This document shows positions 45,018 to 61,702 of a stretch of DNA of 64,000 nt, one piece after another. The stretch is from Rhodospirillaceae bacterium (GTDB lineage: Bacteria; Pseudomonadota; Alphaproteobacteria; SP197), in assembly GCA_002722885.1 (NCBI GenBank), contig PBNE01000018.1:3113-67112 (forward strand), written 5' to 3'. Each line of letters begins with the position of its first letter. The first letter of the stretch is position 1. A program made the translations under genes and the position numbers. The notes under the pieces are model-generated. The model saw only the letters and a list, made by a program, of their open reading frames with translations. It made no database searches and was not told where the DNA came from.

Positions 45018-45103
45018 GACGAAGCCTCCTCAGTTCAGACCGATGGACGGTCAGGACACTGTTCCATCCCAGGGGTCCCGATGGCAACGCCCGCGCCTGG
45101 AGC

Positions 45104-45331: not shown

Positions 45332-45635
45332 CGCTGTGAATCACGAAGCCGGTCTTGGGCGCCAGTCCCTCACCGTCGATCACCTCAATCGTGTTGCCCT
45401 CCACATCCACCTTCACCAGCAGAGAAGCGGTCATCTCGTCCCAGCGCACACTCATGGGGTTAATCAGGCAGTGGTTGGGGTTGTCCGGGCAGCGCGCGGT
45501 GATGTGGTTCCACACCAGCTGATACCATCCGAACCGGTCGGCGAGCCGGAAAGCAGCCGCCAGGTCGACCCTGAGATCGTGTTCAGTCTGCCACATTCGG
45601 CCCTGATTCATCGCGACAACGGACGACATCATCAA
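45306..45635 (-). pseudogene. N-terminal fragment of a class II aldolase/adducin-family gene (paralogue of 42806..43564)
   Basis: LRVDLAAAFRLADRFGWYQLVWNHITARCPD...MTASLLVKVDVEGN aligns with residues about 15-105 of the intact paralogue. It stops before the metal-binding HTH block. Confidence 0.6.
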
Positions 45636-45663
45636 ACTTCTCGTCTTTGAACAGCATCCGAAT

Positions 45664-45762: not shown

Positions 45763-47832
45763 ATGGCACGCGATCCGCGCTACGACATCCTCTTCGAACC
45801 GGTGAAGATCGGTCCGGTCACGGCCAGGAACCGGTTCTATCAGGTTCCCCATTGCAACGGCATGGGCCGGAAGCATCCCACGGCCATGGCCGTGATGCGG
45901 GGTGTGAAAGCCGAAGGCGGCTGGGCTGTCGTCTGCACCGAACAGTGCGACATTCATGTTACTTCGGACACTGAGCGTGAAATCCGCCTGTGGGACGACC
46001 GCGACATTCCCTACCTCGCGCGCGTGGCCGACCAGGTGCACAAGCACGGCGGCCTCGCGGGTCTCGAACTCACCCACATGGGTTATCACGCCGGCAACTA
46101 CATTGGCCGCGAGGTCGCCATGGCGCCCTCGGGACGCCCGGCCTACGGCAACATGCCCTTCCATGCCCGTGCGATGGACAAGACCGACATTGCGGACTAC
46201 CGCCGCTGGCATCGGGCCGCCGCCCTGCGCGGCAAGGAGGCCGGCTTCGACATCATGTATGTCTACGCCGGACACAGTCTCAGTCTGCCGATGCACTTTC
46301 TGTCGCAGCGCCACAACACCCGTACTGACGAATACGGCGGCTCAATGGAGAACCGCGTGCGCCTGCTGCGCGAGGTGATCGAGGACACCAAGAACGCTGT
46401 GGGCGACACCTGCGGCATCGCCGTGCGCCTAGCGGTTAACGAACTGCTGGGTCCCGGCGGCATCACTCCCGACAAAGAAGGCCGCGCCGTCATCGAGATG
46501 CTGGGTGAGCTGCCTGATCTCTGGGACGTTAACGTGGCGGATTGGGAAAACGACAGCGAAACGTCGCGCTTCACCGAAGAGGGCTACCAAGAAGAACACA
46601 CCAGCTTCGTAAAGTCGCTGACCTCCAAGCCTGTCGTTGGTGTCGGTCGCTACACCAGCCCCGACAAGATGGTCTCGCTTATCAAGAACGGCGTGCTCGA
46701 CATGATCGGCGCGGCGCGGCCCTCGATCGCCGATCCCTTTCTGCCGAAGAAGATCGAGGAAGGCCGAATCGAGGACATTCGCGAGTGCATCGGCTGCAAC
46801 ATTTGCATCGGCACCGCGAACCAGAACACCTACATGCGCTGCACCCAGAACCCGACCCAGAGCGAGGAATGGCGGCGTGACTGGCATCCCGAGGTCATAC
46901 CGCCCAAGAACACAGACGACCGGATACTGATCGTGGGTTCCGGACCAGCCGGCCTGGAAGCGGCGCGAGCCCTTGGTCAGCGCGGCTACGACGTCATGCT
47001 GGCAGAAGCCCGCCACGAGTTGGGCGGACGTGCGGCCTGGGAATCGGGCCTGCCGGGCCTTTCGGCCTGGGGCCGTGTGAAGGACTGGCGCATCGGCCAG
47101 CTTCACAAGTTGCCCAATGTCGAGATCTTCATGGATTCGGAGATGACCGCCGAGACCGTGCGCGAAACCGGTGCCAGCCTTGTGGCCCTGGCAACCGGCG
47201 CCACATGGCGGCGCGACGGGTCGGGCCGCTATCACGACCATGCGATGCAGAGCGCCCTGAAGTTCGCCCAGAAAATCTTCACACCCGAGGACATCGTGGC
47301 CGGCGCCGATGTGGAAGGCCCCGTCGTCGTCTTCGATGATGACCACTACTACATGGGCGGTGTCATCGCCGAAGCCCTGGCCCGCGCCGGGCGCACGGTC
47401 AGCATCGTCACGCCCTCCGCTTCGGTCTCGTCATGGACCGCCTTCACGCTCGAGATCGGACGCATTCAGGCGCGCATGCGGGAGCTCGGCATTGCGCTCC
47501 ACCTCGACCACACCCTGACAGATATCGACATGGGCGAAATCGAGATTACCGACATCTACTCCGGCCGTACAGAGTGGATCAACTGCAGCAGTGTGGTGAT
47601 GGTCACCGGCCAGAATCCGAACGATGCGCTCTACCACGAGCTCATGGCCGACAAAGCCGCGAACGAAGCCGCCGGCATCCGCCGCATCTCGCGCATTGGC
47701 GACTGCTACGGCCCCGGACCCATCGCCGCCGCCGTCTTCGGCGGCCACCGTTATGCCCGTGAACTGGGTGACCATGTCGGTGACGGCGTACCCTTCAAAC
47801 GTGAAATCGTCGAACTCGTGGCCGAGATCTGA
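45763..47832 (+). CDS. Trimethylamine/dimethylamine dehydrogenase-family flavin/Fe-S protein
   Basis: The N-terminus ARDPRYDILFEPVKIGPVTARNRFYQVPHCNGMG closely parallels the remembered Methylophilus TMADH N-terminus, including the Cys used for 6-S-cysteinyl-FMN. CIGCNIC...C Fe-S motif and an ADP-binding fold ILIVGSGPAGLEAA. Confidence 0.9.
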   Translation: MARDPRYDILFEPVKIGPVTARNRFYQVPHCNGMGRKHPTAMAVMRGVKAEGGWAVVCTEQCDIHVTSDTEREIRLWDDRDIPYLARVADQVHKHGGLAGLELTHMGYHAGNYIGREVAMAPSGRPAYGNMPFHARAMDKTDIADYRRWHRAAALRGKEAGFDIMYVYAGHSLSLPMHFLSQRHNTRTDEYGGSMENRVRLLREVIEDTKNAVGDTCGIAVRLAVNELLGPGGITPDKEGRAVIEMLGELPDLWDVNVADWENDSETSRFTEEGYQEEHTSFVKSLTSKPVVGVGRYTSPDKMVSLIKNGVLDMIGAARPSIADPFLPKKIEEGRIEDIRECIGCNICIGTANQNTYMRCTQNPTQSEEWRRDWHPEVIPPKNTDDRILIVGSGPAGLEAARALGQRGYDVMLAEARHELGGRAAWESGLPGLSAWGRVKDWRIGQLHKLPNVEIFMDSEMTAETVRETGASLVALATGATWRRDGSGRYHDHAMQSALKFAQKIFTPEDIVAGADVEGPVVVFDDDHYYMGGVIAEALARAGRTVSIVTPSASVSSWTAFTLEIGRIQARMRELGIALHLDHTLTDIDMGEIEITDIYSGRTEWINCSSVVMVTGQNPNDALYHELMADKAANEAAGIRRISRIGDCYGPGPIAAAVFGGHRYARELGDHVGDGVPFKREIVELVAEI

Positions 47833-47844
47833 GCCGCCCCTCGC

Positions 47845-49452
47845 ATGTCTCAGTCCGGTTCCAGTCTACCACCGCTGCCGGTCTCGATCCCGCACATGCT
47901 GTCCGAACGGGCACGCGCAACGCCGGATCGTGAAGCGTTTGTCTTTTTCGACCAGAACAAGACAATTACTTACCGGGGACTTGAGGAGGAAGTCAGGCGG
48001 GTTGCCGCCGGCCTCTCTTCCATGGGTGTCCGCAAGGGGACCCATGTCGCGCTGATGCTGCCCAACATCGCTGAATTCCCGTTCACCTGGCTGGCACTAG
48101 CCTGGTTGGGTGCCATTTCGGTCCAGCTCAACCCGAAGTTCACCGGCCGGGAGCTCGACTACGTTCTGAACGACGCCGATGTCGACTACCTAGTGATCGA
48201 CGAAACCTGCCTGTCGTCGTTCGATGCGATGGAACAGCGCAGCGCACGCCTGCCCGACGCCAACATCATCGTTTGCAGCACGGAACGCACCGACAGTCCC
48301 TATGCCCTCTGGGCTTCATTGACCGACTCCGCCCCACTGCCCGAGGCCCCGCGCGACGACGTCACCCGGCACGATGTCGTCGCCATTCTCTACACCTCAG
48401 GCACCACAGGATTTCCCAAGGGGTGCATGCTCGATCATCAGTACTGGCTGCAGATCGCCACCTGCGCGCTGTTGGCCCAGGGCGATCACACGCCGCGCCG
48501 GTCTCTGATTCAGGAGCCGATGTTCTACATCCAAGGCAACGCCATCTTCGTTGCCTCATTGCTCGCCAACGCCACGGTCTACTGCCCCGCGAGGCCCAGC
48601 ATCGCGAAGTTCCTCGGTTGGGTGCAGGACTACGCCATCGACTATTGCGCGATCCCTGTCCCGCTGCTCCATGTCATGGAAGACTACCCTGCGGAGATGG
48701 GCCAGAGCCTTTGCTTTGTCCATGCCTGGTACTATCCTGGCGGTGCCCTGGAGCGCCTCGAAGAGCGCTTCAGACTTGTCGGCAGAGATTCCTATGCGAT
48801 GACCGAAAATGGGCTCTGTCTCTACGTGCCCGTTGACCGCCCCGACCTCGCGGGCAGGGGCTCGGTCGGTGTCCCGGCACCCGGACGCGAGATTCGTATC
48901 GTCGATGAGGATGGCAACGATGTGGCCGACGGAGAGACCGGTGAAGTCTGGACGGCCGGCCCCGGACATTTCCACGGCTACTACCGCAAGACCACCGCCA
49001 ACCGTGAGAGCTTCCAGGGACGCTGGTTCCGCACCGGCGACCTGATGCGGCGTGACGCAGACGGCGGCCACTATCTGGTCGGACGCATCAAAGACATGAT
49101 CAAACGCTCAGGAGAGAACATCTCAGCAGCAGAAGTCGAAGGCTGCCTTGCCCGCCTGCCCGGGATTGTCATGACCGCTGTGATCTCCGTGCCTGATCCG
49201 GAGCGCGGTGAAGAGGTCAAGGCCTACCTTTGTCTCGCACCGGACCTGACGCCGGAGGACATCACGCCGCAGATGGTCTTCGACCACTGCGCAGACGGCC
49301 TTGCCGCCTTCAAAATTCCTCGCTACCTCGCCTACGTTGAGAGCCTTCCCATGACCGCCAGCGACGACAAGGTTTCGAAGGCCGAGCTGACCGTTGGCAT
49401 CGATGATCTCACGTCCGGTTCGTTTGACCGAATCGACGGCGTCTGGCGCTGA
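47845..49452 (+). CDS. AMP-binding acyl-CoA synthetase/ligase
   Basis: AMP motif ILYTSGTTGFPKG, YAMTE, TGD and a C-terminal K (IKRSGENI). Confidence 0.9.
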   Translation: MSQSGSSLPPLPVSIPHMLSERARATPDREAFVFFDQNKTITYRGLEEEVRRVAAGLSSMGVRKGTHVALMLPNIAEFPFTWLALAWLGAISVQLNPKFTGRELDYVLNDADVDYLVIDETCLSSFDAMEQRSARLPDANIIVCSTERTDSPYALWASLTDSAPLPEAPRDDVTRHDVVAILYTSGTTGFPKGCMLDHQYWLQIATCALLAQGDHTPRRSLIQEPMFYIQGNAIFVASLLANATVYCPARPSIAKFLGWVQDYAIDYCAIPVPLLHVMEDYPAEMGQSLCFVHAWYYPGGALERLEERFRLVGRDSYAMTENGLCLYVPVDRPDLAGRGSVGVPAPGREIRIVDEDGNDVADGETGEVWTAGPGHFHGYYRKTTANRESFQGRWFRTGDLMRRDADGGHYLVGRIKDMIKRSGENISAAEVEGCLARLPGIVMTAVISVPDPERGEEVKAYLCLAPDLTPEDITPQMVFDHCADGLAAFKIPRYLAYVESLPMTASDDKVSKAELTVGIDDLTSGSFDRIDGVWR

Positions 49453-49467
49453 GGGCGGACAGAGACA

Positions 49468-49920
49468 ATGAGCTCCGAGACATCGATTATCCTGGAACGG
49501 TTGCACCGTCCGGACACCGAGCTTGGTGTCTCCGGTTGGCTGCTCGTCGACGCGACTCTCAATCAGGCCTTCGCCGATGCCACGCTTGATCCCGTCGCCA
49601 TAGAGATCGAAGGACAGGCTCATGCTCACGGTTTCCTCACCATGTCCCTGCTTTCCCATTTGTGCTCGCAGGCGCTGGGCCTCGTGACGCCGGGCGACAT
49701 GACGGAGGAAGGCTACACCCTTAACTACGGCTTCAACCGTCTGCGCCTGATCGAACCGGTGCCTCTGGGATCCCGCATCCGCGGGCACTTCAGGACCTCT
49801 ACTGACGGCCCGACGGAACGGGGGGAGGTTACCCTGCTGCCGCTCGATGTCAGGATCGAGATCGAGGACAACGAACGACCGGCCATGGCCGCCCAGTGGC
49901 TGCTCGCCTGGCGACCCTGA
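49468..49920 (+). CDS. MaoC-like (hot-dog fold) dehydratase/hydratase
   Basis: 150 aa with ...HAHGFLTMSLLS... and the YGFNRLRLIEPV pattern typical of the MaoC/NodN family. Confidence 0.8.
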   Translation: MSSETSIILERLHRPDTELGVSGWLLVDATLNQAFADATLDPVAIEIEGQAHAHGFLTMSLLSHLCSQALGLVTPGDMTEEGYTLNYGFNRLRLIEPVPLGSRIRGHFRTSTDGPTERGEVTLLPLDVRIEIEDNERPAMAAQWLLAWRP

Positions 49921-49929
49921 GCAGCGGGT

Positions 49930-50712
49930 TTAAGCACCTTCCAACCCATCGATCAGGGCCGGCAGGTCAGCGACGGAATCGATGACGTGATCGGCGCCGG
50001 CGGCCCTCAGCTTAGCCACGGCGTGGTCACGCAACGGTGCGATCTCCGCTTCCGACATGGCCGCTAGCTCGTCCGGAGTCTTGCCGACATAGTTGCCCGA
50101 CAGCGATACACCCACGGTCAGGCAGCCCGCCGCCACACCCTCGGTAATCCCCGGCTCGGTATCGTCGACCTTGATCACAGCTGACGGCGGATAGACGTCG
50201 AGATCAATGAAGCATTGGTACATGCCCAGCGGCCCGGGTCTGCCTTCCTTAAGATCATCGGAACAGACGAGGTTGTCGGGTTCATAGCCCTGGGCTGCAG
50301 CCACCGGCAGGACGTGGGCCATGATCGAACGGGTGTATCCGGTGGTCGAACCAATCTTCATGCCACGTCTGCGAAGGTCCTGGATCGTGCCAAGCGCACC
50401 GGGAACCAGATCGGCATACTTGGCCACAACCCGTTCGTTCATCGGTACAAACATCTCGTAGAGCGCATCGACATCCCGATCGGTCGGCGCGGCTCCGTTC
50501 AACACTTGCCACTGCGTCGCAATTCGTCCCTCGCGCAGCATCGTCCGGATGTGGTCCCGTTTGGCCATGCCCATTGGCGCGCGGGCCTCCTCGACGGTCG
50601 CCTCGATGCCGAACGCTGCAAAGGCCTCCACGAACACGCCCATCGGCGCAAACGATCCGAAGTCGACCATCGTACCGGCCCAGTCGAACACCACCGCCTT
50701 GAACATCGTCAT
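49930..50712 (-). CDS. phnX: Phosphonoacetaldehyde hydrolase (phosphonatase), HAD superfamily
   Basis: AVVFDWAGTMVDFGSFAP (HAD motif I in the PhnX context), GMAKRDHI (Schiff-base Lys region), GSTTGYTR, GRPGPLGMY and DDTEPGI. Confidence 0.85.
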   Translation of the reverse strand: MTMFKAVVFDWAGTMVDFGSFAPMGVFVEAFAAFGIEATVEEARAPMGMAKRDHIRTMLREGRIATQWQVLNGAAPTDRDVDALYEMFVPMNERVVAKYADLVPGALGTIQDLRRRGMKIGSTTGYTRSIMAHVLPVAAAQGYEPDNLVCSDDLKEGRPGPLGMYQCFIDLDVYPPSAVIKVDDTEPGITEGVAAGCLTVGVSLSGNYVGKTPDELAAMSEAEIAPLRDHAVAKLRAAGADHVIDSVADLPALIDGLEGA

Positions 50713-51064
50713 GTGCGTCACCTGTTGTTGCGGCACTCTTGTTGACCTCAACCTGCCTGTAATCCTTCCAGCCGCGACAAGATTGTGAAGCCAATCAGAT
50801 TGTAAACAATTGCATCCTTTATTGATCTGCCGGAGCCGAGCCGATGTCTTCCCTGCCAAACAACACCGATGTTCTGGTCATCGAGGCATCCAGGATGGCC
50901 GTGCAGCCCCAGTCTCCGCTCTCGCCGAGATGTTCCAGCCAACCCTCAGCGGCGTCGCGCCAATTGTCGTTCACATCATTCCTCCCCACGGGCCGCATTG
51001 TGCTACAGGAGTCTGGAAGACACGAACACCTGATAACCTTTGGGAACCCGTGAGGCACGAGGCC

Positions 51065-52741
51065 ATGCGACACGCCCCAGACGCCAGCAGCGAAACGACC
51101 GTAAGCTATCGTCGGTCGCCTTCCGAGGTCATGCGGCTCGACCGGCTGGGTTCGTTTCATGCCACGCGCCTGTCCTTCATGCAGACGCTGCTACGGCGGG
51201 TGGAGCGCGAAGACTGGCGCTTCGAACGGCGGCTATGGGAAATCGACGAAAACGGTTTGGGTCGCGCGGTCTACACCGTCTACGGCCCGGAACGTGACTA
51301 TTCTCTTGTGGCCTTTGCCCATGATCTGCCCGACGACATGCGCTCGGACCGCGTCATCGCCACAGCCTGGGACGCCACCTTCAGCCTGTTTGACGGCATC
51401 CCCGACGAAGCGGACCTGCAGCGCCTGGAAGCCAATGTGCCGAAGCAGGAAGCCGGTCGGGTGTCCGACAACGAACTGTCACTTTCCCGCGCCAACCGTT
51501 CCGTGCGCCTGTTCAACCATGTCGTCGAAAGCCTGGCATCCGGCCAGCAGCCCGACCGCGAGCGGGTGGAGAGCACCGGCTACCTGATGCGGACCACGGC
51601 CGTCTACGGCTCCGGCAAGTTCGGCGCGGCAGACCGTGTGAAGATTGCCGACCGTCCGGATGTCAGCGGCCCCTTTCAGGCCGAGATGCTCTCGGTCTGG
51701 CTCACCCGCGCCTTCACCCTCGATCTCGCAGAACATCTGGCCCGTTGTCGGGGCGGCGAGCGGGCGACGACGCTTGATCCGGACCTGCGCCGCCTGTTCG
51801 GCGTCGGCAACTCCACCGGTCTGGGCATGGCTCCGTTCCTGATGAATCATCCCGTGCTCTTTAACAATTGGATCGCCGCGCGTGAGGAGGCCTTCGCCCG
51901 CGTCCGCGCCTTGCCCATTGCCGGGACGGAAGAGATTGCCACCTTCCGCGACACGCTCCAGGCCGCCATTCGCAACGCCCGCTTCTGGACGTCCGATCAT
52001 CCGCTTCAGCAGGACAAGCTGGCCGTTCTGCGCCGTGATCTCGAGACCATCACCGGACACACGACCGATAATGCTGCATTTGCCGGGGACAGACCGTGGG
52101 ATCGCCTGTGGCACTGGGGCCAGCAGACACTGGGTCTCGAAGGACAGGAGGCACTCGTCCCGTTGATCCTTGAGCCGCACGGAGATCTGATCGACGACCT
52201 CACCGCCTGCATGGCGGCTGATGAGGACTCGGAGTTCCGCATCAATGGTGGCCAGACCGTCACGGAGCTTCGGGATCTCATGGTCCGAAGCTACGACTGG
52301 GCGCTCGACACCGACTACGACACACCGGACCACAACGCCCGCTTCTGGTACGTCTCCGAAGAGAAACTCGAGCCGCGCCTGGGCGAGCGGCACAGCGAGG
52401 ACGGCGGCCACCTCGAACAACCCCTCGCCACCGGCCGCGACGCGGCGCGGCTGAAGACAGCGCTGGATGCCTGGCGGGGCGGAGACCTCGTGGCCGACTT
52501 TCTGCTCGCCCACCCCGAGCACCGTCATATGGTCCGCCGCGCCCAGATTGCCGCCCGATTCCCCTATTCCGAGATTCGCGACAACCTGATCGACGCCACC
52601 ATGCTTCCGATCGACCTGTTGCGCTGCAAGCTCTCCTTCTTCGGCGCCTCACGCTTCGATCCGCGTTCGGACCGTTGGGTACGCATCTGCATGTATCAGG
52701 GAGCTACCTTCCCGCACGAGCTGCTTAAGGCACCGGCATGA
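51065..52741 (+). CDS. Conserved-looking hypothetical protein (558 aa), no recognisable domain
   Basis: Long ORF with native-like composition and codon usage. ATGA overlap with the downstream gene. The start is uncertain (ATG 51065; the listed ORF opens at 50810). Confidence 0.7.
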   Translation: MRHAPDASSETTVSYRRSPSEVMRLDRLGSFHATRLSFMQTLLRRVEREDWRFERRLWEIDENGLGRAVYTVYGPERDYSLVAFAHDLPDDMRSDRVIATAWDATFSLFDGIPDEADLQRLEANVPKQEAGRVSDNELSLSRANRSVRLFNHVVESLASGQQPDRERVESTGYLMRTTAVYGSGKFGAADRVKIADRPDVSGPFQAEMLSVWLTRAFTLDLAEHLARCRGGERATTLDPDLRRLFGVGNSTGLGMAPFLMNHPVLFNNWIAAREEAFARVRALPIAGTEEIATFRDTLQAAIRNARFWTSDHPLQQDKLAVLRRDLETITGHTTDNAAFAGDRPWDRLWHWGQQTLGLEGQEALVPLILEPHGDLIDDLTACMAADEDSEFRINGGQTVTELRDLMVRSYDWALDTDYDTPDHNARFWYVSEEKLEPRLGERHSEDGGHLEQPLATGRDAARLKTALDAWRGGDLVADFLLAHPEHRHMVRRAQIAARFPYSEIRDNLIDATMLPIDLLRCKLSFFGASRFDPRSDRWVRICMYQGATFPHELLKAPA

Positions 52742-53442
52742 GTGATCCCACCGCGCAAACCCCGGCCGCTCCAACCACCGACGTCACTGGAGCCTGGGAT
52801 GTCTCGCTGGCCGAAATCGACGCCATGGGGCTGAAGGCCGCACGCGGGGCCGGGTTTGCCTGGGGCATGGCCCAGGAGGCCGGACGTGCGGCTCGTTGGC
52901 TTGCCTCCTACGGCCTGCCGGGTCCAGAAACGCTGGCCAACCTGCTGCAGATCATCGACGGCGAAAACGAACGCCACACGCCGGTCGCCGACGGTCCCGT
53001 CTGGCACGGCAGGGGTGGACCCATGTGCCCCATTCATCTGGGCACCGTGCTTTCGGATCGCGCACACGAGATCACGGATTCTCGACACATGGCGGCCGGC
53101 GCTCTTGACCTTCCGATTCTCGTTCTGCCCTTCCTGTGCCGTGTTGCCCGAGACCTCGACATGACCCTGATGATGGAGCTGCAGGCTCTGACAGCATATG
53201 CAACCCCCACGGGGCCGGCGCTTGAGGATCTGCAGGCACCCTGGCCCGGTACCACAGAACGCCTGGTCGTGAGCCGCGTCGCAGCTAGCGCCTGGACGCC
53301 CCGTTCCAATAAGCCCGATGCCCACACCATTCGCCTCGACATCTGGCGTGTTCTCGATGGTTTCGCCCAGCGCACCTATGTTCCGACAACCGAACAGTCC
53401 CGTGCCACCGGCGCCGGGTCCGGGCTTGACGACAACGACTGA
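52738..53442 (+). CDS. Hypothetical protein, possibly DUF3726-like (234 aa)
   Basis: GLKAARGAGFAWGMAQEAGRAARWLASYGLPG resembles, from memory, the N-terminal signature of DUF3726 proteins. Translationally coupled to the upstream gene. Confidence 0.7.
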   Translation: MSDPTAQTPAAPTTDVTGAWDVSLAEIDAMGLKAARGAGFAWGMAQEAGRAARWLASYGLPGPETLANLLQIIDGENERHTPVADGPVWHGRGGPMCPIHLGTVLSDRAHEITDSRHMAAGALDLPILVLPFLCRVARDLDMTLMMELQALTAYATPTGPALEDLQAPWPGTTERLVVSRVAASAWTPRSNKPDAHTIRLDIWRVLDGFAQRTYVPTTEQSRATGAGSGLDDND

Positions 53443-53514
53443 GCCCCAACGGTTCCCAAGGGCCGGCCTCGGCACTATCGTGTCCACCGCATTATCGAAG
53501 TTGAGGAGTGTGTG

Positions 53515-54702
53515 ATGCCTGATCCCAAGAGCGGCGAACTCAGAGGCAACCGGAACCTGAAGCGCCTTGAGCGCATCTCGCAGACCAAGCAGCAGCAGGA
53601 GATCGAACGCGGACTGGAGCTCGGGCTCGAAGCCGCCGAGTCGATCAACGACCGCACCATCTCGAACTTCAGCCGAGGCCACCTCCCGGCCTTTGCCGGC
53701 ATCAACACCTTCATGAAGACGCCGTATTGCGAGGACATTCGCAAGGTCGGCGAGTACGAGGCCGCCTTTGTCGGCGTGCCCTTCGACACCGGCACCACCT
53801 ACCGTCCCGGAACCCGCTTCGGACCCCAGGGTGTCCGGCGCATCTCGGCGGTCTATGACGGCTACTGTGTCGACGGGGCCGTCGATCTCTTCGAAGAGCT
53901 CGATATCTGCGATGCCGGCGACATCTTTGTCATTCCCGGCAACATCGAAAAGACTTTCGATCAGGTCTCCAAGGGCATCTCGCATATCTTCCAGTCTGGC
54001 GCCTTCCCCGTCATCGTCGGCGGCGATCACAGTCTCGGCTATCCCAATGTCAGGGGTGTCGCGCCGCACATCGACGGCAATGTCGGCATCATCCATTTCG
54101 ACCGTCACCTGGACACCCAGGACATCGACATGGACGAGCGGATGCACACCACTCCGTGGTACTGGACGACCAACAACCACGAGAGCGTCGATCACTCCAA
54201 GGCCCATCAACATCACCACCACATGCACGATGTCGGGCTTTCCAACTGCCCGCCGAAGAACCTGGTGCAGATCGGCATCGGCGGCTGGTACGGCAACCGT
54301 CCGGGCTCCGAGGTCGCGCGCGACCGCGGCACCAGCGTCATCACCATGAAGGATTTCGAGGAGCTGGGTATCGCCGGCACCGCCGAAATGGCGCTGGAAC
54401 TCGCCTGGAAAGACGCTGAGGCGGTTTATCTCTCCTTCGATATCGACTCGATCGATCCCGGTTACGCGCCGGGCACCGGCACACCGGAACCGGGCGGCTT
54501 CACACCGCGCGAGGCGCTCGAGATGGTACGCCTGATCGCCCGTGAAGGCCTTTGCGCCATGGAAGTGGTCGAGGTTTCACCGCCCTATGACGTGAACGAC
54601 AACACCTCCCAGCTCGCCTGCCGTGTCATCCTGGACACGTTGGGTACCATGGTCAGCGAGGGCAAACTGGGCCACCGCGATCAGGTCATGCGGCCCGAGT
54701 AG
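53515..54702 (+). CDS. Arginase/agmatinase/guanidino-acid hydrolase (ureohydrolase) family protein with N-terminal extension and a His-rich insertion
   Basis: Metal-ligand blocks VGGDHSLGYP, IHFDRHLDT and LSFDIDSIDPGYAPGTGTPEPGG. GAGGAG Shine-Dalgarno 7 nt upstream of ATG 53515. Confidence 0.88.
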   Translation: MPDPKSGELRGNRNLKRLERISQTKQQQEIERGLELGLEAAESINDRTISNFSRGHLPAFAGINTFMKTPYCEDIRKVGEYEAAFVGVPFDTGTTYRPGTRFGPQGVRRISAVYDGYCVDGAVDLFEELDICDAGDIFVIPGNIEKTFDQVSKGISHIFQSGAFPVIVGGDHSLGYPNVRGVAPHIDGNVGIIHFDRHLDTQDIDMDERMHTTPWYWTTNNHESVDHSKAHQHHHHMHDVGLSNCPPKNLVQIGIGGWYGNRPGSEVARDRGTSVITMKDFEELGIAGTAEMALELAWKDAEAVYLSFDIDSIDPGYAPGTGTPEPGGFTPREALEMVRLIAREGLCAMEVVEVSPPYDVNDNTSQLACRVILDTLGTMVSEGKLGHRDQVMRPE

Positions 54703-54721
54703 AAGGACAGGAGTTTCCCTC

Positions 54722-55408
54722 GTGACATTTGCCGTTCCCCCGCTTGATCCTGTCGGGCTCGCCATCGAGGACAGCGAGGCGTTACTCCCTGTCGCCCGCG
54801 CCTATTGCATCGGCCGCAACTATGCCGATCACTCCATCGAGATGGGCGGAAACCCTGACCGCGAGGAACCGTTCTTCTTCACCAAACCGGCAACAGCCAT
54901 CGTTCCCGGTGGTGGCGAAATCGCCTACCCCAGTGCCACGTCGGATATGCATCACGAGCTTGAGCTTGTCGTGGCGCTCGGCAAGGGCGGGCGGGACATT
55001 GCCGTGGGCGACGCTCTGGATCATGTCTTCGGCTATGCCGTCGGCATCGACCTCACCCGCCGCGACCTGCAGGCAGCCGCGAAGAAGGCAAGTCGTCCCT
55101 GGGACATGTCCAAGGGCTTTGACCAGTCAGGCCCCATCGGCACGCTCATGACGGTCGATGCCTGCGGCCATATCGACGATGCGCCCATGAGTCTCACGGT
55201 GAACGGCGAGACGCGTCAGAGCGGTAATGTGAACCAGATGATCTGGAAGCCGCCCGAAGCGATCGCCTATCTCTCCGGTCTTGTGGAGTTGCGCGCCGGC
55301 GATATCATCTTCACCGGCACACCCGCCGGCGTTGCTGCGGTGGAGCGGGGCGACAGCCTTCATGCCGACGTTGCCGGACTTCCGGCCCTCGACTGCACCG
55401 TCGTCTGA
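54722..55408 (+). CDS. Fumarylacetoacetate hydrolase (FAH)-family protein
   Basis: YCIGRNYADH, FFTKP, ELELVVALG, GYAVGIDLTRRD and IFTGTPAGV. GTG 54722 is preceded by AGGAG. Confidence 0.85.
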   Translation: MTFAVPPLDPVGLAIEDSEALLPVARAYCIGRNYADHSIEMGGNPDREEPFFFTKPATAIVPGGGEIAYPSATSDMHHELELVVALGKGGRDIAVGDALDHVFGYAVGIDLTRRDLQAAAKKASRPWDMSKGFDQSGPIGTLMTVDACGHIDDAPMSLTVNGETRQSGNVNQMIWKPPEAIAYLSGLVELRAGDIIFTGTPAGVAAVERGDSLHADVAGLPALDCTVV

Positions 55409-55426
55409 TACGCCCGCGACCCGGGT

Positions 55427-56464
55427 CTAAGTCAGGTCCGCGCGGTCGATCACTGAGCAGATCATGGCGAGGTGATCACCGGGTTTGACGACCGGGTTCC
55501 GCCGCCGCACGGCCAGGAGGCCGCTTTGCGGCGCCACAAGTGTGCCGGCAATCATGCCAAAGCGATGAACATCGTGAATCGTCGCCACAAGAGCACCTTC
55601 CTCGACTTCCTGAGCCAGTACGAGATGTGGCTCGGCCAGGCCGTGACAATCGGTCGTAAGCAGTGAAGCGCCGTCGGTGATGTTCAGGAAGGTGGTAGCG
55701 GCTCCCTGCGAATCACCGCCCAGCGCATCGCGCAGGTCGCTGTCGATCAACCCTTCGCGACACAACAGCCGCAGGCAGCCTCGCCAGCCATGATCGAGCG
55801 AGGAGGCCGAGACCGTTCCCATACCGCCAAGCTCACAAGACAGGAATCGCGTGTTCTGACGGTAGGCCGCCGTATCGAAATCACCGGAATAGGGTCCGCC
55901 GATGGGACAGATCATGGTGTGCGGTGCTCCGAAACACTCGGCTGACGCCAGATTGTCCGCATCAAGCTCGGGCTGATCGCCGCGGCAGAGGAAGGCGCAA
56001 TCGACATACTGGGTTGCCGTGCCGCCTGAATGGAAATCGAGGATCAGGTCGGCCATGGCGATTAGATGCTCGTTGACCCATCCTGCAATGGCACGGGTCG
56101 GTCCCTGATCGGTCGCACCGGGAAAGGCCCGGTTCATGTTGCCCTTGTCCAGTGGCGAGACTCGAGCTCTGTCCAGCATGGCCGGCGTGTTGAGCGCCGG
56201 CATCATGATCAGCCGGCCCGAGATCTGATTCGGTGCCAGCGCGGTCATCAGCTGCCGCAAAACGATCTGTCCTTCGTACTCGTCTCCGTGATTGCCGGCT
56301 GTCAGCAGGATCGTCGGCCCGTCACCACCGACAAGAACGCCGATTGGCACACGAATGCTGCTGAAGGCATGCTCGCTGTCGGAGTGATCGAGATCGACAA
56401 ATCCGGCCCGTTTCCCTGGTGCCTCAAAATCAAGGGCGCAGCGCGCCGGCCCAAAGCTCAGCAT
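55427..56464 (-). CDS. Succinylglutamate desuccinylase/aspartoacylase (AstE/AspA, M14-like) family deacylase
   Basis: ILLTAGNHGDEYEG (zinc-ligand H..E block) and LDFHSGG. TGATG overlap with the upstream hyuB-like gene. Confidence 0.85.
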   Translation of the reverse strand: MLSFGPARCALDFEAPGKRAGFVDLDHSDSEHAFSSIRVPIGVLVGGDGPTILLTAGNHGDEYEGQIVLRQLMTALAPNQISGRLIMMPALNTPAMLDRARVSPLDKGNMNRAFPGATDQGPTRAIAGWVNEHLIAMADLILDFHSGGTATQYVDCAFLCRGDQPELDADNLASAECFGAPHTMICPIGGPYSGDFDTAAYRQNTRFLSCELGGMGTVSASSLDHGWRGCLRLLCREGLIDSDLRDALGGDSQGAATTFLNITDGASLLTTDCHGLAEPHLVLAQEVEEGALVATIHDVHRFGMIAGTLVAPQSGLLAVRRRNPVVKPGDHLAMICSVIDRADLT

Positions 56465-58239
56465 CAGTTTTCCCCTTCTTCGTTCGTGAGGCGCCGCCGC
56501 AAGGCAGTCGTCGCGTCCCCATCGACTCCGCCCGATGTATCGAGCACGACGCCGTAAACATCCCGCGCCCTTTGCACCGACACCAGACCTTCGGCAACAT
56601 CATGGGCCACACGGCCGGGTTCCCTTCGATGGGCAGCACCATAACCGCCGCCACCCGGTGAAACACCGGTGACGCAATCGCCCTTCTCCAGCACTAGGGT
56701 CGCCCAACCGTCGGCCGCCTCGTCGTCTCCGGCACGGCGGGTCACGGTGTTGCGTGCCGGGGCACCCGCACCACCACCCCGCGCACCCAGCGCCGGGAAG
56801 GTCGTGCCATCACTTTGATAAAACACCTCCATGCAGGCACCATGAGCCGCAAAGGTGACCTGCGACGCCGGAGCCCCCCGGAACGTCCCGGCACCCTCGC
56901 GATCCGGCACCAGGCGTCGTTCGGTCACGAGCACGGGATGGCGCAGCTCATCGACCTCGACGCTGTCAAAAAACGACATTCCGGCCGTGCCGGTCGTGAT
57001 CATTGCAAGCCAGCCGTCGGCACGCGGGCTTCCTGCTCCCAGCGTGTCGCCCAGGATCAACTGGTCGACGAAGGGCCTGCCGTCCCGTCCCTCCTCGTGG
57101 CCGGAGATCACCGCCTGCGCTGCGGTCTGAACGCCGCCGACCTCGGCCATGCCGTAGCCATCCGCCAGATTGGCAAAGGCTAGGTGCACCGCATTGGTCA
57201 GCCGGTCTGCGACGTTCTGGGTCGCCACTGAACAGCTCGTCGGATGGCGCGGAATTCCCACCACGCAATTCTCGCGCAGAGCCATATCCAGTCGCCGGAA
57301 GCTGCCTGCGTTGGTCGGCACATCAAGACCCAGACTGTTGAACGTCCCCACCATGGCGGCCGTTCGGGCGCAGGCCTCGCTGAGGTTGAGCCCGTTGGGC
57401 AGACAATCGGGGTTGTCGGTGAGATCAACCGCGATCCTGCCTCCCTCAGGGTCGACCGCAATCTCGGCCTTGATCGGGATGCCGTCCGCGGGCGTGCCGG
57501 GGAACGGATCGTGCCGTGTCTGACCGACTGCCGACCCTGCGGGCAGTTCCGCGACGGCCAGCGCCATTCGGCGTTCGCTGTAATCGAACCAGGCGGCGAT
57601 CATCTCGTCCAACCGGTCCCAGCCCATCTCACCGGCCAGCGTGATCAGTTCTCGCTCGCCCACACGCGCGGAGCCGACGCCGGCAAGATAGTCCCCGCGC
57701 CACTGCTCCGGGCTCCGGATGCGCAGTTCACACATTCGAATAAGGTCATCGAGGTCCTCGTAGTCACGCTGCACGCGGGTCGCGGCAAAGATCAATGCAC
57801 CTTCCTCGTACACATCACGGGCGGCAGCGTGATAGGTCGTGGGCACAGAGTTGCCGATGTCGGCCTGGTGGGCCTTGGCCATCACTGTGAAGCGATGGCG
57901 ACCCTGATCATCCATGACAGGCACCAGAACCGAGAGATCGGCCGCGTGGGAACAGCCGTGATAGGGCGAGTTGTGCAGAAACGCGTCGCCAGCCGCCAGG
58001 CCAGGGTGAAAGTCCTGCATCGTCGCTGCCATCTGGTCCGGGCCCGCCATCACGTGGATGGGAAGGCTTTCGGCAGCGGCCACCAGTTCGTTGCCCGCCG
58101 TAAGCACGCAGCAGGAGAAATCCCGACCCGTGTTGATCACGCCGGAGCGCGCAGAACGCAGCAGCGTGTTCTGCATCTTGCGTGCGACCCCTTCCATGCG
58201 CTTGGAGAAGATCGCGAGATCGAGGCCACTCACGGTCAT
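56464..58239 (-). CDS. Hydantoinase B/oxoprolinase family protein
   Basis: FSCCVLTA, NSPYHG.SH..D and ADGW..GG..G blocks typical of HyuB. ATGA overlap with the hyuA-like gene. Confidence 0.9.
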   Translation of the reverse strand: MTVSGLDLAIFSKRMEGVARKMQNTLLRSARSGVINTGRDFSCCVLTAGNELVAAAESLPIHVMAGPDQMAATMQDFHPGLAAGDAFLHNSPYHGCSHAADLSVLVPVMDDQGRHRFTVMAKAHQADIGNSVPTTYHAAARDVYEEGALIFAATRVQRDYEDLDDLIRMCELRIRSPEQWRGDYLAGVGSARVGERELITLAGEMGWDRLDEMIAAWFDYSERRMALAVAELPAGSAVGQTRHDPFPGTPADGIPIKAEIAVDPEGGRIAVDLTDNPDCLPNGLNLSEACARTAAMVGTFNSLGLDVPTNAGSFRRLDMALRENCVVGIPRHPTSCSVATQNVADRLTNAVHLAFANLADGYGMAEVGGVQTAAQAVISGHEEGRDGRPFVDQLILGDTLGAGSPRADGWLAMITTGTAGMSFFDSVEVDELRHPVLVTERRLVPDREGAGTFRGAPASQVTFAAHGACMEVFYQSDGTTFPALGARGGGAGAPARNTVTRRAGDDEAADGWATLVLEKGDCVTGVSPGGGGYGAAHRREPGRVAHDVAEGLVSVQRARDVYGVVLDTSGGVDGDATTALRRRLTNEEGEN

Positions 58240-60314
58240 GACGTCATCTCCCCGCCGACAGTCACAATGAGATTTCCGCTCTCGTCGCGCCTAAAGGTCG
58301 CATCGTCGTCGACCACCAGGGTTGTGACGTCGGTTTCAACAAAAGCAGGCCCCGTGAACATCGCTCCGGGTTCCAGCGAACCGAAGCCGAGGACCGGCAC
58401 CGATTGCCAGCGCCCGCCCAGGAAACCCTGCCGTGTGTTCACCGAACCGATGCGATCACCGCCTTGTTCCAGCATTGCCAGCGGCCCGGAACGCAGGTCA
58501 GCCGAAACACGCGCGCGCCAGTTCACGAATTCAATCTCCGCCCCGCGATCGTCAAACGCAAATATGTCCCGATGCAGTCGGTGGAAGTCCTCGATCAGCG
58601 CGCCAATACCATCTTCGCAGTCGAAGGTGCCATCCCGCAGAGGCAACTTGATCTCCCAAATCTGTTGCGCGTAGCGCGCTTCAACACTGTAGGACACGCG
58701 TGCCGCCTGTGGATGGGCCAGCCGCTGTGCAAAGGCATCACACCGTTTCTTCAGGCTGTTCAGGACCGCTCTGGCGCGGCCGATATCGAAGGCATCGCTC
58801 CGGATGAGCTGAAACTCTGCAACGTCGTCGCTCAACGGGCACAGCAGCCCTCCGACGGCACTGATCGCCGCCCCCGCACCGGGGAACAAAACTGTCGAAC
58901 AACTCAGTCGTCGAGCAATCGCCACGGCATTCAGACCGGCCGCACCGCCACCGCCGATCAGCACCGTCTCACGGGGATCGACACCCTGATTGACTGTGAT
59001 GTCCTCGATCGCGCCGGCCATGGTTTCGGTTGTCAACGCCAGCACAGCCGCCGCGGCCTCCTCCACGTCAAGGCCCATTGGCTCGGCAACTTCCCGTACA
59101 AGCGCCTCACGCGCCAGGTCAGGGTCAAGCGCCATCCGTCCGCCCAGGAAGTAAGCGGGATCGATGTGACCCAGCACGACAGAGGCGTCGGTCACCGTGG
59201 GAAGCCGGCCGCCTGCGCCATAGCAGGCCGGACCGGGCACGGCCCCCGCGCTTTGCGGCCCCACGTACAGGAGCCCGGCGTCGTCCACGCCCGCAATGCT
59301 GCCGCCGCCGGCTCCCACACTCGAGATGTCGACCGACGGAAATCCTGTCATGTGGCCGAGGTAGGGCTGACCGATCCAGGTTTCGCGGGTCTCCGGGATC
59401 TCGCCATCCCGGACCAGCGCCACGTCGTACGTCGTACCGCCGGTGTCCGCCACGATAGCGCGGTGCCCCAATCCAGCCCGCTCGATCAGATGGTTGGCCG
59501 CGACAGGGGCCATAGCCGGGCCCGATTTGACGACGTGAACCGGTGATGCTGCGAGCTCGGCCGCTTCCTTCATCATGCCCTGTGAAGTCACCACCAGTAG
59601 CCTGCCTTCATAGCCGGCACCACGAAGCCGTTCCTCAAGCTGTTCCAGATATGACGTCATGACCGGCTTCAGCGCCGCATCCAGTGCCGTTGCCGACGCA
59701 CGTCTGTATTCGCGCAGCGACGGATTGACTCGGTGAGAAAGGCTGACGGGAAGATCCGGAAAGCGTTCCTGGAGCATTGCACCCACACGCTGCTCGTGAA
59801 TCGGATTAACGATCGACCAAAGAAGGCAGACCGCGATGGCCTCAACTTCTGCAGCCTCGAGCCTGTCCATGACATCAACCAGCCCGCCTTCATCAAGCGG
59901 CTGCACCACGAAACCTGTCACGTCGATCCGTTCAGGCACCTCGTAGGTCAGCGCCCGCGGCACAAAGGGCTCGGGATAGGCAATGCCGTGATCGAACAAC
60001 GGCAGTCCAATGCGGCCGCCCTCGCGCAACATCAGGATATCGGGATGGCCCTTCGTTGTCAGAAAGGCAGTGCGGGCCGTCAAGCCGGTGATCACAGCGT
60101 TGGTTGCCGTGGTCGTGCCATGCACGAAGAGCTCGCAGCTCGCCAGAAGTCTGGTTGTTGTCAGCTCCAATTCGCGTGCAGCCACGTCCAGGACACCAAG
60201 CACGCCGTCCACCGGATTGTCCGGGGTGGTCGGCGCCTTGAAGAGACGCAGCGTGTTACCGTCCTCGATCACCAGATCGGTGAAGGTGCCGCCCGTATCG
60301 ACCGCAAACCGCAT
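58236..60314 (-). CDS. Hydantoinase A/oxoprolinase family protein (ATP-dependent)
   Basis: MRFAVDTGGTFTDLV at the N-terminus, HGTTTATNA and DTGGTTYDV (actin-fold ATPase motifs). Confidence 0.9.
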   Translation of the reverse strand: MRFAVDTGGTFTDLVIEDGNTLRLFKAPTTPDNPVDGVLGVLDVAARELELTTTRLLASCELFVHGTTTATNAVITGLTARTAFLTTKGHPDILMLREGGRIGLPLFDHGIAYPEPFVPRALTYEVPERIDVTGFVVQPLDEGGLVDVMDRLEAAEVEAIAVCLLWSIVNPIHEQRVGAMLQERFPDLPVSLSHRVNPSLREYRRASATALDAALKPVMTSYLEQLEERLRGAGYEGRLLVVTSQGMMKEAAELAASPVHVVKSGPAMAPVAANHLIERAGLGHRAIVADTGGTTYDVALVRDGEIPETRETWIGQPYLGHMTGFPSVDISSVGAGGGSIAGVDDAGLLYVGPQSAGAVPGPACYGAGGRLPTVTDASVVLGHIDPAYFLGGRMALDPDLAREALVREVAEPMGLDVEEAAAAVLALTTETMAGAIEDITVNQGVDPRETVLIGGGGAAGLNAVAIARRLSCSTVLFPGAGAAISAVGGLLCPLSDDVAEFQLIRSDAFDIGRARAVLNSLKKRCDAFAQRLAHPQAARVSYSVEARYAQQIWEIKLPLRDGTFDCEDGIGALIEDFHRLHRDIFAFDDRGAEIEFVNWRARVSADLRSGPLAMLEQGGDRIGSVNTRQGFLGGRWQSVPVLGFGSLEPGAMFTGPAFVETDVTTLVVDDDATFRRDESGNLIVTVGGEMTS

Positions 60315-60488
60315 GGTAATGGTGCTGCCTTCCCTGAGGCTGGCAGCATGGCCTGCGACAAGGTGCGATGTCGAGCAGGCGCTTGGAAGTCACCATAGCG
60401 TGTCGGGTCTTGCCGATCAGTGCGATCGGGTTCAACGTCGCTCGACAAGACGGCCTAATCGCCTGATTTCTGTAGGAAAGGACACGAC

Positions 60489-60866
60489 ATGCTCGCCTAT
60501 GTGATGGTCGGCAGCGCCAATCTGAAACGCTCCGCAAAGTTCTACGACGCGGTGATGGATGCACTCGGCTACATCCGAACTGAAACTGAGAAGAGCTACA
60601 TCGGCTACGGGACCAAACGTGCCCCGGATCAGACGGTGTTTTACATCACCCGCCCCTACAACCGTCGCAAGGCAAGCGTGGGCAACGGCACGATGATCAC
60701 TTTGAAGGCGCGATCCCGCAAAGCACTCGATGCCTTCCACGCAGCTGCCCTTGCGAACGGCGGAACCAACGAAGGCAAGCCCGGACCACGGCTCGACGGC
60801 GACCCTACCTGTTACGCATATGCCCGCGACCCCGACGGCAACAAGATCTGCGCCTGCAGCCCCTAG
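60489..60866 (+). CDS. VOC (glyoxalase/bleomycin-resistance) family protein
   Basis: 125 aa. LAYVMVGSANLKRSAKFYDAVMDALG... and YAYARDPDGNKI are the typical VOC ends. Confidence 0.85.
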   Translation: MLAYVMVGSANLKRSAKFYDAVMDALGYIRTETEKSYIGYGTKRAPDQTVFYITRPYNRRKASVGNGTMITLKARSRKALDAFHAAALANGGTNEGKPGPRLDGDPTCYAYARDPDGNKICACSP

Positions 60867-61152
60867 ATCGGTTCGCTGGCGATGGCGCCAGTCAAGAGCG
60901 TCACGTCGGCGTCCCCGATGACGTTCCAGACGTCGAGCTGGATCGAGCCGCCGGTCAGGTCCGCGAAGTCGCCAACCGTCGAAACCAGTCCCTGATCGGC
61001 CGTGTAACGTTCCCAGTCAAACACATCGTTGCTGGCGAAAAACCCATAGGTCTCCGTCCTGTCGGTCGTACCGCCCCGTCAAAGTCGCACGTGACCTGTG
61101 CCTGCGTGCCATTACCTACCTCGCCGCCAGCATCGAGCGGCAATGTGAACAC
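60863..61152 (-). pseudogene. Frameshifted remnant of an unidentified gene (C-terminal about 90 codons)
   Basis: The native-GC minus-strand reading ..PLDAGGEVGNGTQAQVTCDFD switches frame to TETYGFFASNDVFDWERYTADQGLVSTVGDFADLTGGSIQLDVWNVIGDADVTLLTGAIASEPI*. There is no start codon, and the upstream part is replaced by lower-GC DNA. Confidence 0.35.
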
Positions 61153-61693: not shown

Positions 61694-61702
61694 GAGAAGT
61701 CC

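Follow-up and report, generated by a model that had tools for sequence, protein, structure and literature searches.

Four neighbouring genes on the forward strand of a 64,000-nucleotide stretch of DNA from a Rhodospirillaceae bacterium (contig PBNE01000018.1 of assembly GCA_002722885.1; hereafter the window) raise the question of whether genes packed as tightly as an operon also work together as one pathway. The cluster occupies 51065-55408 and consists of genes that we call A, B, C and D. A sequence-only reading of the locus had proposed that two proteins of obscure function (A and B) act with a ureohydrolase (C) and an FAH-family enzyme (D) in a single four-gene pathway, possibly as accessory or metallocentre components of the ureohydrolase. 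Our analysis, built on gene structures, family assignments, residue patterns and co-occurrence statistics that were established directly, favors a different answer: the cluster is probably, though well short of certainly, a mosaic peculiar to one lineage, in which a marine Rhodospirillales-like alphaproteobacterium has three independent modules side by side, and not a four-gene system conserved across genomes. The novelty of the locus lies in two places, a subclade of guanidinases that lacks a specificity tryptophan and carries a histidine-rich loop (C), and an orphan protein family (the A-B pair).

Reciprocal neighborhood surveys separate A-B from C and D

The mosaic reading is carried by two surveys of gene neighborhoods. 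The first, seeded with A, covered 80 genome loci from Alpha- and Gammaproteobacteria and other bins, none of which held a ureohydrolase C or an FAH gene D. The second, seeded with C, covered 89 loci, of which 80 came from metagenomes and the other 9 lay on contigs encoding close homologues, and A or B was found in none of them. Because of this reciprocal absence (0/80 and 0/89), A-B and C are treated here as separate modules, and the same counts contradict the proposal that A and B are accessory or metallocentre components of the ureohydrolase. A homologue of D accompanied C in 1 of the 89 C-seeded loci (L103) and lay there on the opposite strand, which led us to reject a conserved C-D pair; same-strand C-D linkage was found in this population alone. 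The proposed four-gene pathway is thus not supported, as its genes almost never co-occur, with the one caveat that an A-B-C order recurs in the metagenome contig L180, which is weighed below.

Four real genes with short junctions

The ORF (open reading frame) map, translations and junction sequences confirmed four co-directional, tightly packed forward-strand genes: A (558 amino acids (aa); 51065..52741), B (234 aa; 52738..53442), C (395 aa; 53515..54702) and D (228 aa, with a GTG start; 54722..55408). The ATG of B overlaps the TGA of A as gcATGAgt at 52738-52741, and D begins after a gap of 19 nucleotides (nt) that follows the TAG of C and contains an AGGAG site, so that the ATGA overlap at 52738 and the 19-nt gap pointed out earlier both stand. 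Between B and C lies a 72-nt spacer (53443..53514) with a GAGGAG ribosome-binding site at 53503-53508, and an alternative GTG start of C at 53512 would lengthen the protein to 396 aa. Pfam assigned B to DUF3726, C to Arginase and D to FAA_hydrolase and returned no match for A; because all four have many homologues, we regard A-D as real genes and not as chance ORFs. On identical contigs from marine metagenomes, genes called independently agreed with A-D in both product and order, and about 20 contigs, drawn from several marine samples, all share this arrangement.

Upstream, a divergent intergenic region of 352 nt (50713..51064, from the ORF map and sequence) separates gene A from phnX, which starts at 50712 on the reverse strand, and this region is the presumed promoter region of the cluster. 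A sigma-70-like promoter scan of both strands of 49400-56600 found no site, and a scan of the same interval for terminator-like hairpins found none in the B-C spacer, its sole forward-strand match falling within gene A; neither scan yielded anything beyond shuffled expectation, a result that is uninformative for an alphaproteobacterium. An Rfam scan of 43000-64000 found no element, guanidine riboswitches included. The cluster is probably transcribed as a single unit here.

A and B form an orphan two-protein module

Gene A encodes a member of an uncharacterised, highly conserved family for which neither a sequence relative nor a fold relative was found. The protein had no Pfam or NCBIfam match, 56 members of its family searched against Pfam at E<=10 returned noise only, and PDB sequence-profile searches with the A and B profiles gave no match. 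An AlphaFold2 (AF2) model of A (pLDDT 77, pTM 0.79) likewise had no fold match in the PDB (best E 0.48, TM<=0.14), which agrees with the earlier remark that A holds no recognisable motif. A protein-kinase-like fold, considered on account of scattered Foldseek matches to kinases and aminoglycoside phosphotransferases and of a GSGKFG motif, was rejected, all of these matches having E>0.6, probability <=0.1 and TM<=0.15. The family is nonetheless large, with at least 8000 candidate homologues scored, all at E<=0.001, and at least 1480 clusters at 50% identity; among the 120 matches listed, wherever a source gave a name it was 'hypothetical protein'. About 190 residues are invariant across 56 sequences, including the segments TAVYGSGKFGAADR (51596-51637), GVGNSTGLGMAPFL (51800-51841), RFWYVSEEKLEPRLGER (52340-52390) and DPRSDRWVRI (52658-52687). 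Identity across classes is 52-63%, a conservation on par with that of the neighbouring enzymes, and the most conserved loops coincide with the low-confidence parts of the AF2 model.

In B, the DUF3726 match (PF12525) spans residues 22-77 with 62.9 bits against a cut-off of 22.1, and PF12525 was also present in 67 of 67 B homologues among the matches listed. The motif GFAWGMAQEAGRAARWL, which the sequence-only reading had quoted, is indeed present as B residues 39-55, and the family as a whole conserves an N-terminal motif, KAARGAGFxWGxAxEAGRAARWL, and a C-terminal one, RTYVPxxxxSRxxGAGxGLxDND. The AF2 model of B (pLDDT 88) matched type-2 malate/lactate dehydrogenases (YiaK, AllD) in Foldseek, with E 2e-4 and TMq of about 0.46 over about 177 columns. 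B had no match to Pfam Ldh_2, the family of these dehydrogenases, and an hhalign comparison of the B family with neighbouring Ldh_2 proteins was insignificant (1.9% probability). Judged from the model, the fold of B is apparently a partial, degenerate Ldh_2-like one, and B is most likely a non-catalytic, degenerate Ldh_2 relative. The statement that only the last two genes have an assignable fold accordingly holds for A, which has no fold match, and fails for B.

Three lines of evidence tie the two proteins to each other. First, B directly follows A in 78 of the 80 A-seeded genome loci, the remaining two being cut by contig ends. Second, the two occur as natural A-B fusions (P0121, P0122, P0125, P0126, P0134, P0136, P0155 and P0161). 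Third, distant A homologues of 840-940 aa carry C-terminal extensions of 300-380 aa that match the B profile (hhalign 88.7%, E 2.6e-6). Because B follows A so consistently and because fusions and B-like extensions exist, A and B almost certainly act as one protein complex, of which A is presumed to be the catalytic subunit. A showed no P-loop GTPase or metallochaperone domain of the UreG/HypB/CobW or UreE/HypA type in Pfam and NCBIfam, and B showed DUF3726 only. Our literature search found no paper on DUF3726 or the A-B family; for S. meliloti it gave a generic 'spermidine/putrescine transport' mention of smb20383 with no evident tie to the A-B locus.

Partners of the A-B pair in other genomes

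The company that A and B keep elsewhere is consistent and differs from that in the window. Of the 80 genome loci, 70 have a Peptidase_M19 (dipeptidase-like) hydrolase adjacent to A-B and 51 have a KGSADH-like aldehyde dehydrogenase (ALDH) there; adjacent genes found in fewer loci are those for a BCCT transporter (15 loci) and Ldh_2 (6 loci). Other common companions are importers of the ProU, PotD or Dpp type and, often, RidA. The ALDH of the operon scored highest in NCBIfam with alpha-ketoglutaric semialdehyde and 2,5-dioxovalerate dehydrogenases, under the cut-offs of both, and a search for literature on combinations of M19, BCCT and ALDH genes found nothing relevant.

Annotated genomes show how this operon is assembled. 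In Phaeobacter inhibens DSM 17395 (pPGA1_262) and Ruegeria sp. TM1040 the order is LysR followed by ALDH-M19-BCCT-A-B(-Ldh), beside genes of the sarcosine oxidase family, while Aminobacter aminovorans has ALDH-M19-A-B-Ldh and then a betaine-type ABC transporter, with the same six genes in Denitrobaculum and in a Logan contig. Pseudomonas sp. MPC6 splits the same operon genes into two divergent operons, with RidA. In Sinorhizobium meliloti and Neorhizobium, whose A is about 30% identical, the order is IclR-A-B-M19 with a PotD-type ABC transporter and either an aminotransferase or RidA, and Mesorhizobium ciceri places A-B within a peptide-type ABC operon with ALDH. No arginase-family or FAH gene stands beside A-B in these annotated loci, from Phaeobacter to Mesorhizobium. 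Together these neighborhoods lead us to infer that A-B carries out the central reaction in the breakdown of a small nitrogenous solute taken up by the cell, with the M19 hydrolase as its near-obligate partner, and the recurrence of RidA, Ldh_2 and ALDH suggests imine/enamine, 2-oxo-acid or aldehyde intermediates.

A few loci depart from this pattern. A-B occurs with no adjacent hydrolase at all in, for example, Mesorhizobium ciceri and L082-L085. In L086, a 265-aa protein of the DDAH/arginine-deiminase superfamily (L086:7060-7857, reverse strand) lies divergently upstream of an A-B pair that has no M19, and thus represents a second, unrelated guanidino-modifying fold beside A-B. Upstream of A-B in Pseudomonas sp. 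NFX15 (L057:7581-7991) is a 121-aa C-terminal remnant of a BCCT transporter that is intact in L064 and L067; the canonical operon has decayed there and A-B-RidA is retained. L064, from a Gordonia sp. IEGM753 assembly, is near-collinear with the Pseudomonas loci L057 and L067 and has a Gram-negative porin gene; either a wrong assignment of the contig or contamination of the actinobacterial assembly may lie behind this.

Set against this background, the window differs. No M19, BCCT or Ldh_2 homologue was found in its 64 kb, and its sole ALDH, 34-36% identical, lies at about 16-17 kb, while the nearest canonical relatives (A 67-72% identical) retain the full operon. In the mosaic reading, module 1 would be a two-subunit, sometimes fused enzyme, with A catalytic and B resembling a degenerate Ldh_2 N domain, which in this lineage stands without its M19, ALDH, transporter and Ldh_2 partners. 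The canonical A-B operon would degrade an imported small amine, betaine or peptide-like nitrogenous solute by way of amide hydrolysis and an imine/enamine or aldehyde intermediate.

C falls in a variant subclade of the GdmH/guanidinase clade

The arginase fold proposed for C was borne out by Pfam (PF00491, 264 bits), and its closest structural relatives are two guanidinases. C matched PDB 9FEK, the guanidinase of N. inopinata, with E 2e-136 and 60% identity, and PDB 7ESR/7OI1, the Synechocystis GdmH (Sll1077), with E 7e-136 and 58% identity; together this pair makes up the characterised Ni-dependent guanidine hydrolases (PMC11410670, PMC12704784). The motifs GGDHS, HFDRHLD and SFDID of C align to all six metal-ligand positions of 9FEK and 7OI1 (H182, D207, H209, D211, D299 and D301 in N. 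inopinata numbering). C also retains the equivalents of Thr97/T105 (in DTGTTY), H222 (in ERMHTTPW) and E344 (in MEVVE), a Thr, a His and a Glu that have been proposed to matter for guanidine hydrolysis. Scores against the NCBIfam agmatinase models fell below the cut-offs (198 against 302 and 158 against 174). On these alignments C belongs to the GdmH/guanidinase clade as a variant subclade, which supports and refines the earlier suggestion that it hydrolyses a guanidino group with release of urea.

Two features set the variant apart. At the site of the guanidine-specificity Trp (W305 in Synechocystis, W313 in N. inopinata, within GTGWPEP), C has Thr323 in a GTGTPEP loop (54472..54492), and across the clade set of 208 relatives that are 69-100% identical the position is Thr in 165, Ser in 43 and Trp in none. 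Palatinszky et al. reported that this Trp confers guanidine specificity and required it for a guanidinase call (PMC11410670), a rule by which C would be classed as 'inferred not guanidinase'. The second feature is a 21-residue His-rich insertion, NHESVDHSKAHQHHHHMHDVG (residues 221-241; 54175..54237), which directly follows ERMHTTPW, the loop of the catalytic-site His, and is missing from both solved guanidinases; the motif HQHHHHMH, quoted in the sequence-only reading, is present in C. In the 160 clade members with the commonest length of the ERMHTxPW-KNLVQ segment (32 residues), a Glu and three His of the insertion are invariant, and two further His and an Asp are present in 157-159, giving the consensus NxHE[SD]V..H.[TS]H..H[S]HMHD[VI]GL.NCPP. 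By this conservation the insertion reads as a clade-defining motif of metal-binding type and not as low-complexity drift, and it would have a metal-binding role.

Taken together, these residues suggest that C acts on guanidine or a slightly larger guanidine derivative and is probably Ni-dependent. In the mosaic reading, module 2 would be a binuclear, probably Ni-dependent enzyme whose pocket is made larger by having Thr where the Trp 'lid' would be, and guanidine or a small mono-substituted guanidine would be converted to urea and ammonia or an amine. The five-His insertion may serve as an extra metal-binding or Ni-acquisition loop, replacing the HypA/HypB-like chaperones that cyanobacterial GdmH needs. 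No Pfam match to HypA/HypB was found among the called genes from about 8 kb upstream to about 10 kb downstream of the cluster. The guanidinase of N. inopinata also has no known Ni chaperone, but a guanidine-I riboswitch is present at its locus (PMC11410670).

Neighborhoods of the C relatives

Genes adjacent to the relatives of C point to import and metal supply. LysR regulators were found in 29 of the 89 C-seeded loci and a NitT/TauT (NMT1)-type ABC importer in 15-26; the guanidine importer GimABC, encoded beside gdmH in Synechocystis, is itself a NitT/TauT system (PMC12704784). In 28 of the 89 loci, a His-rich, six-transmembrane-like membrane protein of 228-237 aa lies directly downstream of the C relative (for example L091:8231-8920, L089:8198-8884 and L094:8276-8989). 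It combines an N-terminal QHALEADH (HX4DH-like) motif, which we take to resemble the HX4DH signature of Ni/Co permeases, with a long His-rich loop, and its matches to NicO and DsbD_2 were weak and sub-threshold, with no Pfam family above threshold. Judged by these motifs and its position, the protein may belong to a family of Ni/Co permeases that has so far gone undescribed and serves C-clade enzymes specifically. Neither the ABC importer nor the His-rich permease of the clade was found in the window, and most C-clade loci have no adjacent HypA/HypB-type chaperones. Close relatives of C, in L093 (96% identical) and in L087 and L094 (91-92%), stand in unrelated contexts without A-B and D.

Two further arrangements were seen in these loci. 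In L094 (12446-15011), as in L095, L097 and L098, a HypA gene is followed by two tandem arginase-family genes within a few kb of the C homologue, a pair that resembles the heteromeric Ni-dependent metformin/dimethylguanidine hydrolases. In L091 (8917-12579), the genes convergent with C and the permease on their downstream side encode a 2OG-Fe(II) oxygenase, possibly related to the methylguanidine hydroxylase MgdH (PMC12508155), together with an amidase and an M20 peptidase.

These neighborhoods bear on a plainer alternative, which we regard as possible if somewhat unlikely: that C is a true GdmH orthologue acting on free guanidine, its specificity left unchanged by the Trp-to-Thr replacement and the His insertion. 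Such an assignment would account for the 58-60% identity to two characterised guanidinases, for the retention of Thr, His, Glu and all metal ligands, and for the linkage of the clade to a GimABC-like NitT/TauT importer and a putative Ni permease. It has to contend, however, with the absence in 208 of 208 sequences of the specificity Trp that the published rule requires (PMC11410670) and with the lack of a guanidine riboswitch in 43000-64000. A Thr in the GTGTPE loop is, moreover, what we take to be the state of agmatinase- and guanidino-acid-hydrolase-type enzymes.

D is an ordinary member of its family

D matched PF01557 with 198 bits against a cut-off of 23.9, as expected from its earlier placement in the FAH family, and fell below all NCBIfam equivalog cut-offs. 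Its best PDB match was 4MAQ, a putative fumarylpyruvate hydrolase (E 1e-82), followed by 6J5Y, FAHD1 (E 2e-44), and YcgM. The ELE, D and K motifs can be read in its sequence as HHELELVV, VGIDLTRRD and SKGFD, and following the FAHD1 literature we take the ELE and D motifs to supply the acidic metal-binding residues. By these matches D is an ordinary FAHD1/fumarylpyruvate-hydrolase-like enzyme of the acylpyruvase type, and module 3 would be a FAHD1/NagK-like acylpyruvate hydrolase or decarboxylase.

Could the cluster still be one pathway?

Several observations weigh against the mosaic reading. The 4.2-kb contig L180 carries the closest relative of the window cluster (A 76% and B 56% identical), and behind its A-B pair starts a gene that matches C at 96% identity over its first 81 residues. 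The B-C spacers of the two share the ribosome-binding site and a CACTATC block; the upstream contexts differ, peptide-type ABC ATPase genes preceding A-B in L180. This conserved order would mean that the adjacency either outlived substantial divergence or moved as a unit. C here also fills the slot directly after B, which is the M19 slot of the rhizobial operons, and a DDAH-like guanidino-modifying enzyme stands beside A-B in L086, both of which fit a model in which the hydrolase partner has been swapped. Finally, the spacers are short, no internal terminator was detected and the arrangement is fixed in about 20 marine contigs, and the substrates named for A, B and the C subclade are throughout ones that we infer from sequence. 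A functional A-B-C link within this sublineage is thus possible, although links between A-B and a guanidino enzyme number only two or three, whereas about 170 loci show none.

The corresponding explanation is that of an A-B-C(-D) pathway in which C has taken over the role of M19 and a guanidino (amidino) analogue of the usual solute is degraded. In this scheme the amine that C sets free together with urea would be taken further by A-B, and D would stand in for ALDH/Ldh_2 by cleaving a dicarbonyl acid that arises from it. We consider this rather unlikely. The persistence of the A-B-C order in L180 despite 76%/56% identity of A and B argues for it, as do the occupation by C of the post-B slot held by M19 in S. 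meliloti and Neorhizobium, the missing M19 and Ldh_2 homologues and distant ALDH of the window, the enzyme of L086, and the tight gene spacing with no detected terminator. Yet the order was seen in two lineages only, the reciprocal surveys turned up no case (0/80 and 0/89), and the A of the window is about as close to M19-linked A proteins (70-72%) as to that of L180 (76%), with no sign of a functional shift. A 96% identical C exists without A-B, the same-strand D-C link occurs nowhere else, and chance adjacency is likely in a dense catabolic island.

A related reading joins A as a catalytic subunit of unseen fold, its obligate, degenerate Ldh_2-like partner B and a swappable binuclear metallohydrolase (M19 elsewhere, here the Trp-less His-loop C) into a new pathway for a guanidino-type marine nitrogenous solute, with C as a self-loading Ni ureohydrolase that has a new substrate. 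As a whole, this combination strikes us as distinctly unlikely.

The role first proposed for A and B, that of serving a binuclear metallohydrolase (M19 mostly, C here) as an accessory or maturation factor or in assembling its metallocentre, fares worse and is in our judgement highly improbable. It would explain why A-B is nearly always beside such a hydrolase (M19 in 70 of 80 loci; C here) and why model confidence is low in the most conserved loops of A, as would be expected of interface regions, and it would fit both the shortage of adjacent HypA/HypB-type chaperones in most C-clade loci and the similar lack of a known Ni chaperone for the N. inopinata guanidinase (PMC11410670). On the other side, neither a Pfam match nor a signature of NTPases or metal chaperones was found in A, its conservation of 52-63% across classes is typical of a catalyst, the 89 C-clade loci manage without A-B, and A-B occurs without an adjacent hydrolase in Mesorhizobium ciceri and L082-L085. 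To our knowledge, M19 zinc enzymes do not need maturation factors, which also counts against this role. The narrower idea of A-B as a Ni chaperone for C we reject on the 0/80 and 0/89 co-occurrence and the lack of an NTPase or chaperone domain. The mosaic of three independent modules therefore remains the reading that we prefer.

The surrounding window

The DNA around the cluster is itself dense in catabolic genes. Convergent with the cluster, an operon on the reverse strand (55427-60314) forms a context gene set that consists, by Pfam, of a DoeB/AstE-like deacylase (55427-56464; 229 bits with the DoeB model TIGR02994, against a cut-off of 402.7), hydantoinase B (56464-58239) and hydantoinase A (58236-60314). 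A convergent pair of C and an AstE-like gene was found once elsewhere among the 89 C-seeded loci (L113, 66% identity). The divergent upstream gene phnX, for phosphonoacetaldehyde hydrolase, scored above its NCBIfam cut-off. Of the neighbors named by the sequence-only reading, the phosphonatase (PhnX) and the DoeB-like deacylase were thus correctly recognised, while the hydantoinase was misplaced: the ORFs at 45763-49452 encode an OYE/FAD oxidoreductase and an AMP-binding CoA ligase, and the actual hydantoinase A/B pair is that at 56464-60314 on the reverse strand.

The description of the region as rich in N-methyl-amine enzymes proved sound. Three demethylase-like paralogues of OYE-FMN plus FAD/NAD-binding oxidoreductases (686-690 aa, 27-30% mutually identical) lie at 31278-35319 on the reverse strand and 45763-47832 on the forward strand, and they are joined by two Rieske oxygenases (36344-38673), an OpuAC binding protein (41666-42622) and PhnX. 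GltB/GltD-like genes (19776-24262), an M81 peptidase and an acyl-CoA dehydrogenase are also present. These genes suggest that the window is a large island for the demethylation of betaine-type compounds, and in so dense an island the chance adjacency of catabolic modules is likely.

Three smaller features were noted along the window. A 150-aa ORF (49468-49920, forward strand) follows the CoA ligase gene, has no Pfam or NCBIfam match and was called on all matching metagenome contigs. At 44286-45650 (L001:69-827, 2569-2895), a sulfatase gene lies between two separate Aldolase_II-family ORFs, one of 252 aa and one of about 108 aa that may be a gene fragment. Across 60001-64000 the GC content drops from about 0.63 to 0.51-0.55, with a partial tRNA-like match at 63964-64000 below the Rfam gathering score, and this segment may be the boundary of the catabolic island.

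Comparison with known systems

With C, the Ni-dependent guanidine hydrolases, themselves a recent discovery, gain a subclade that is abundant in the sea and that current sequence rules score as 'not a guanidinase'. Its substrate and its route of metal loading would extend the picture of how guanidine compounds cycle in the ocean, and the subclade bears on how guanidinases without HypA/HypB chaperones acquire nickel. For the A-B pair, the presence of the operon on plasmids of the tractable Phaeobacter inhibens DSM 17395, Ruegeria sp. TM1040 and Sinorhizobium meliloti opens a step in the use of a nitrogenous solute to genetics.

Comparison with described enzymes places each module differently. 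D resembles the small FAH enzymes FAHD1, YcgM and NagK in that it matches 4MAQ and FAHD1 over the full length and has the acidic metal-binding motifs, and differs from them in a context that shows no aromatic or gentisate pathway. B is comparable to the Ldh_2 enzymes (PF02615: YiaK, AllD, DpkA, ComC), as its predicted fold superposes on about half of these proteins and genuine Ldh_2 genes often come after B in the canonical operon; it is shorter, however, at 234 aa against about 335 aa.

For C, the Mn enzymes GbuA, GpuA, SpeB and proclavaminate amidinohydrolase share the fold and the urea-releasing chemistry (PDB matches at E 1e-30 to 1e-49), but these guanidino-acid and agmatine hydrolases are far more distant than GdmH and have neither the N-terminal extension nor the His insertion. 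The metformin hydrolase MfmAB/MefH and the dimethylguanidine hydrolase DmgH are Ni enzymes whose operons include the Ni transporter HupE (PMC11399263). They belong to the same superfamily as C (E of about 1e-34, PDB 8SNF/8RYI), yet are HypA/HypB-dependent alpha/beta heteromers, whereas C is the product of a single gene and far closer to GdmH. With GdmH and the N. inopinata guanidinase, C shares the arginase fold, the six metal ligands, the Thr, His and Glu residues and an N-terminal helical extension. It departs from both in having Thr (Thr or Ser across its clade) in place of the Trp and in its 21-residue His insertion, and from GdmH also in its locus, where neither GhaA/GhaB (HypA/HypB-like) genes nor a guanidine riboswitch lie nearby and where the usual partner of the clade is instead a His-rich membrane protein.

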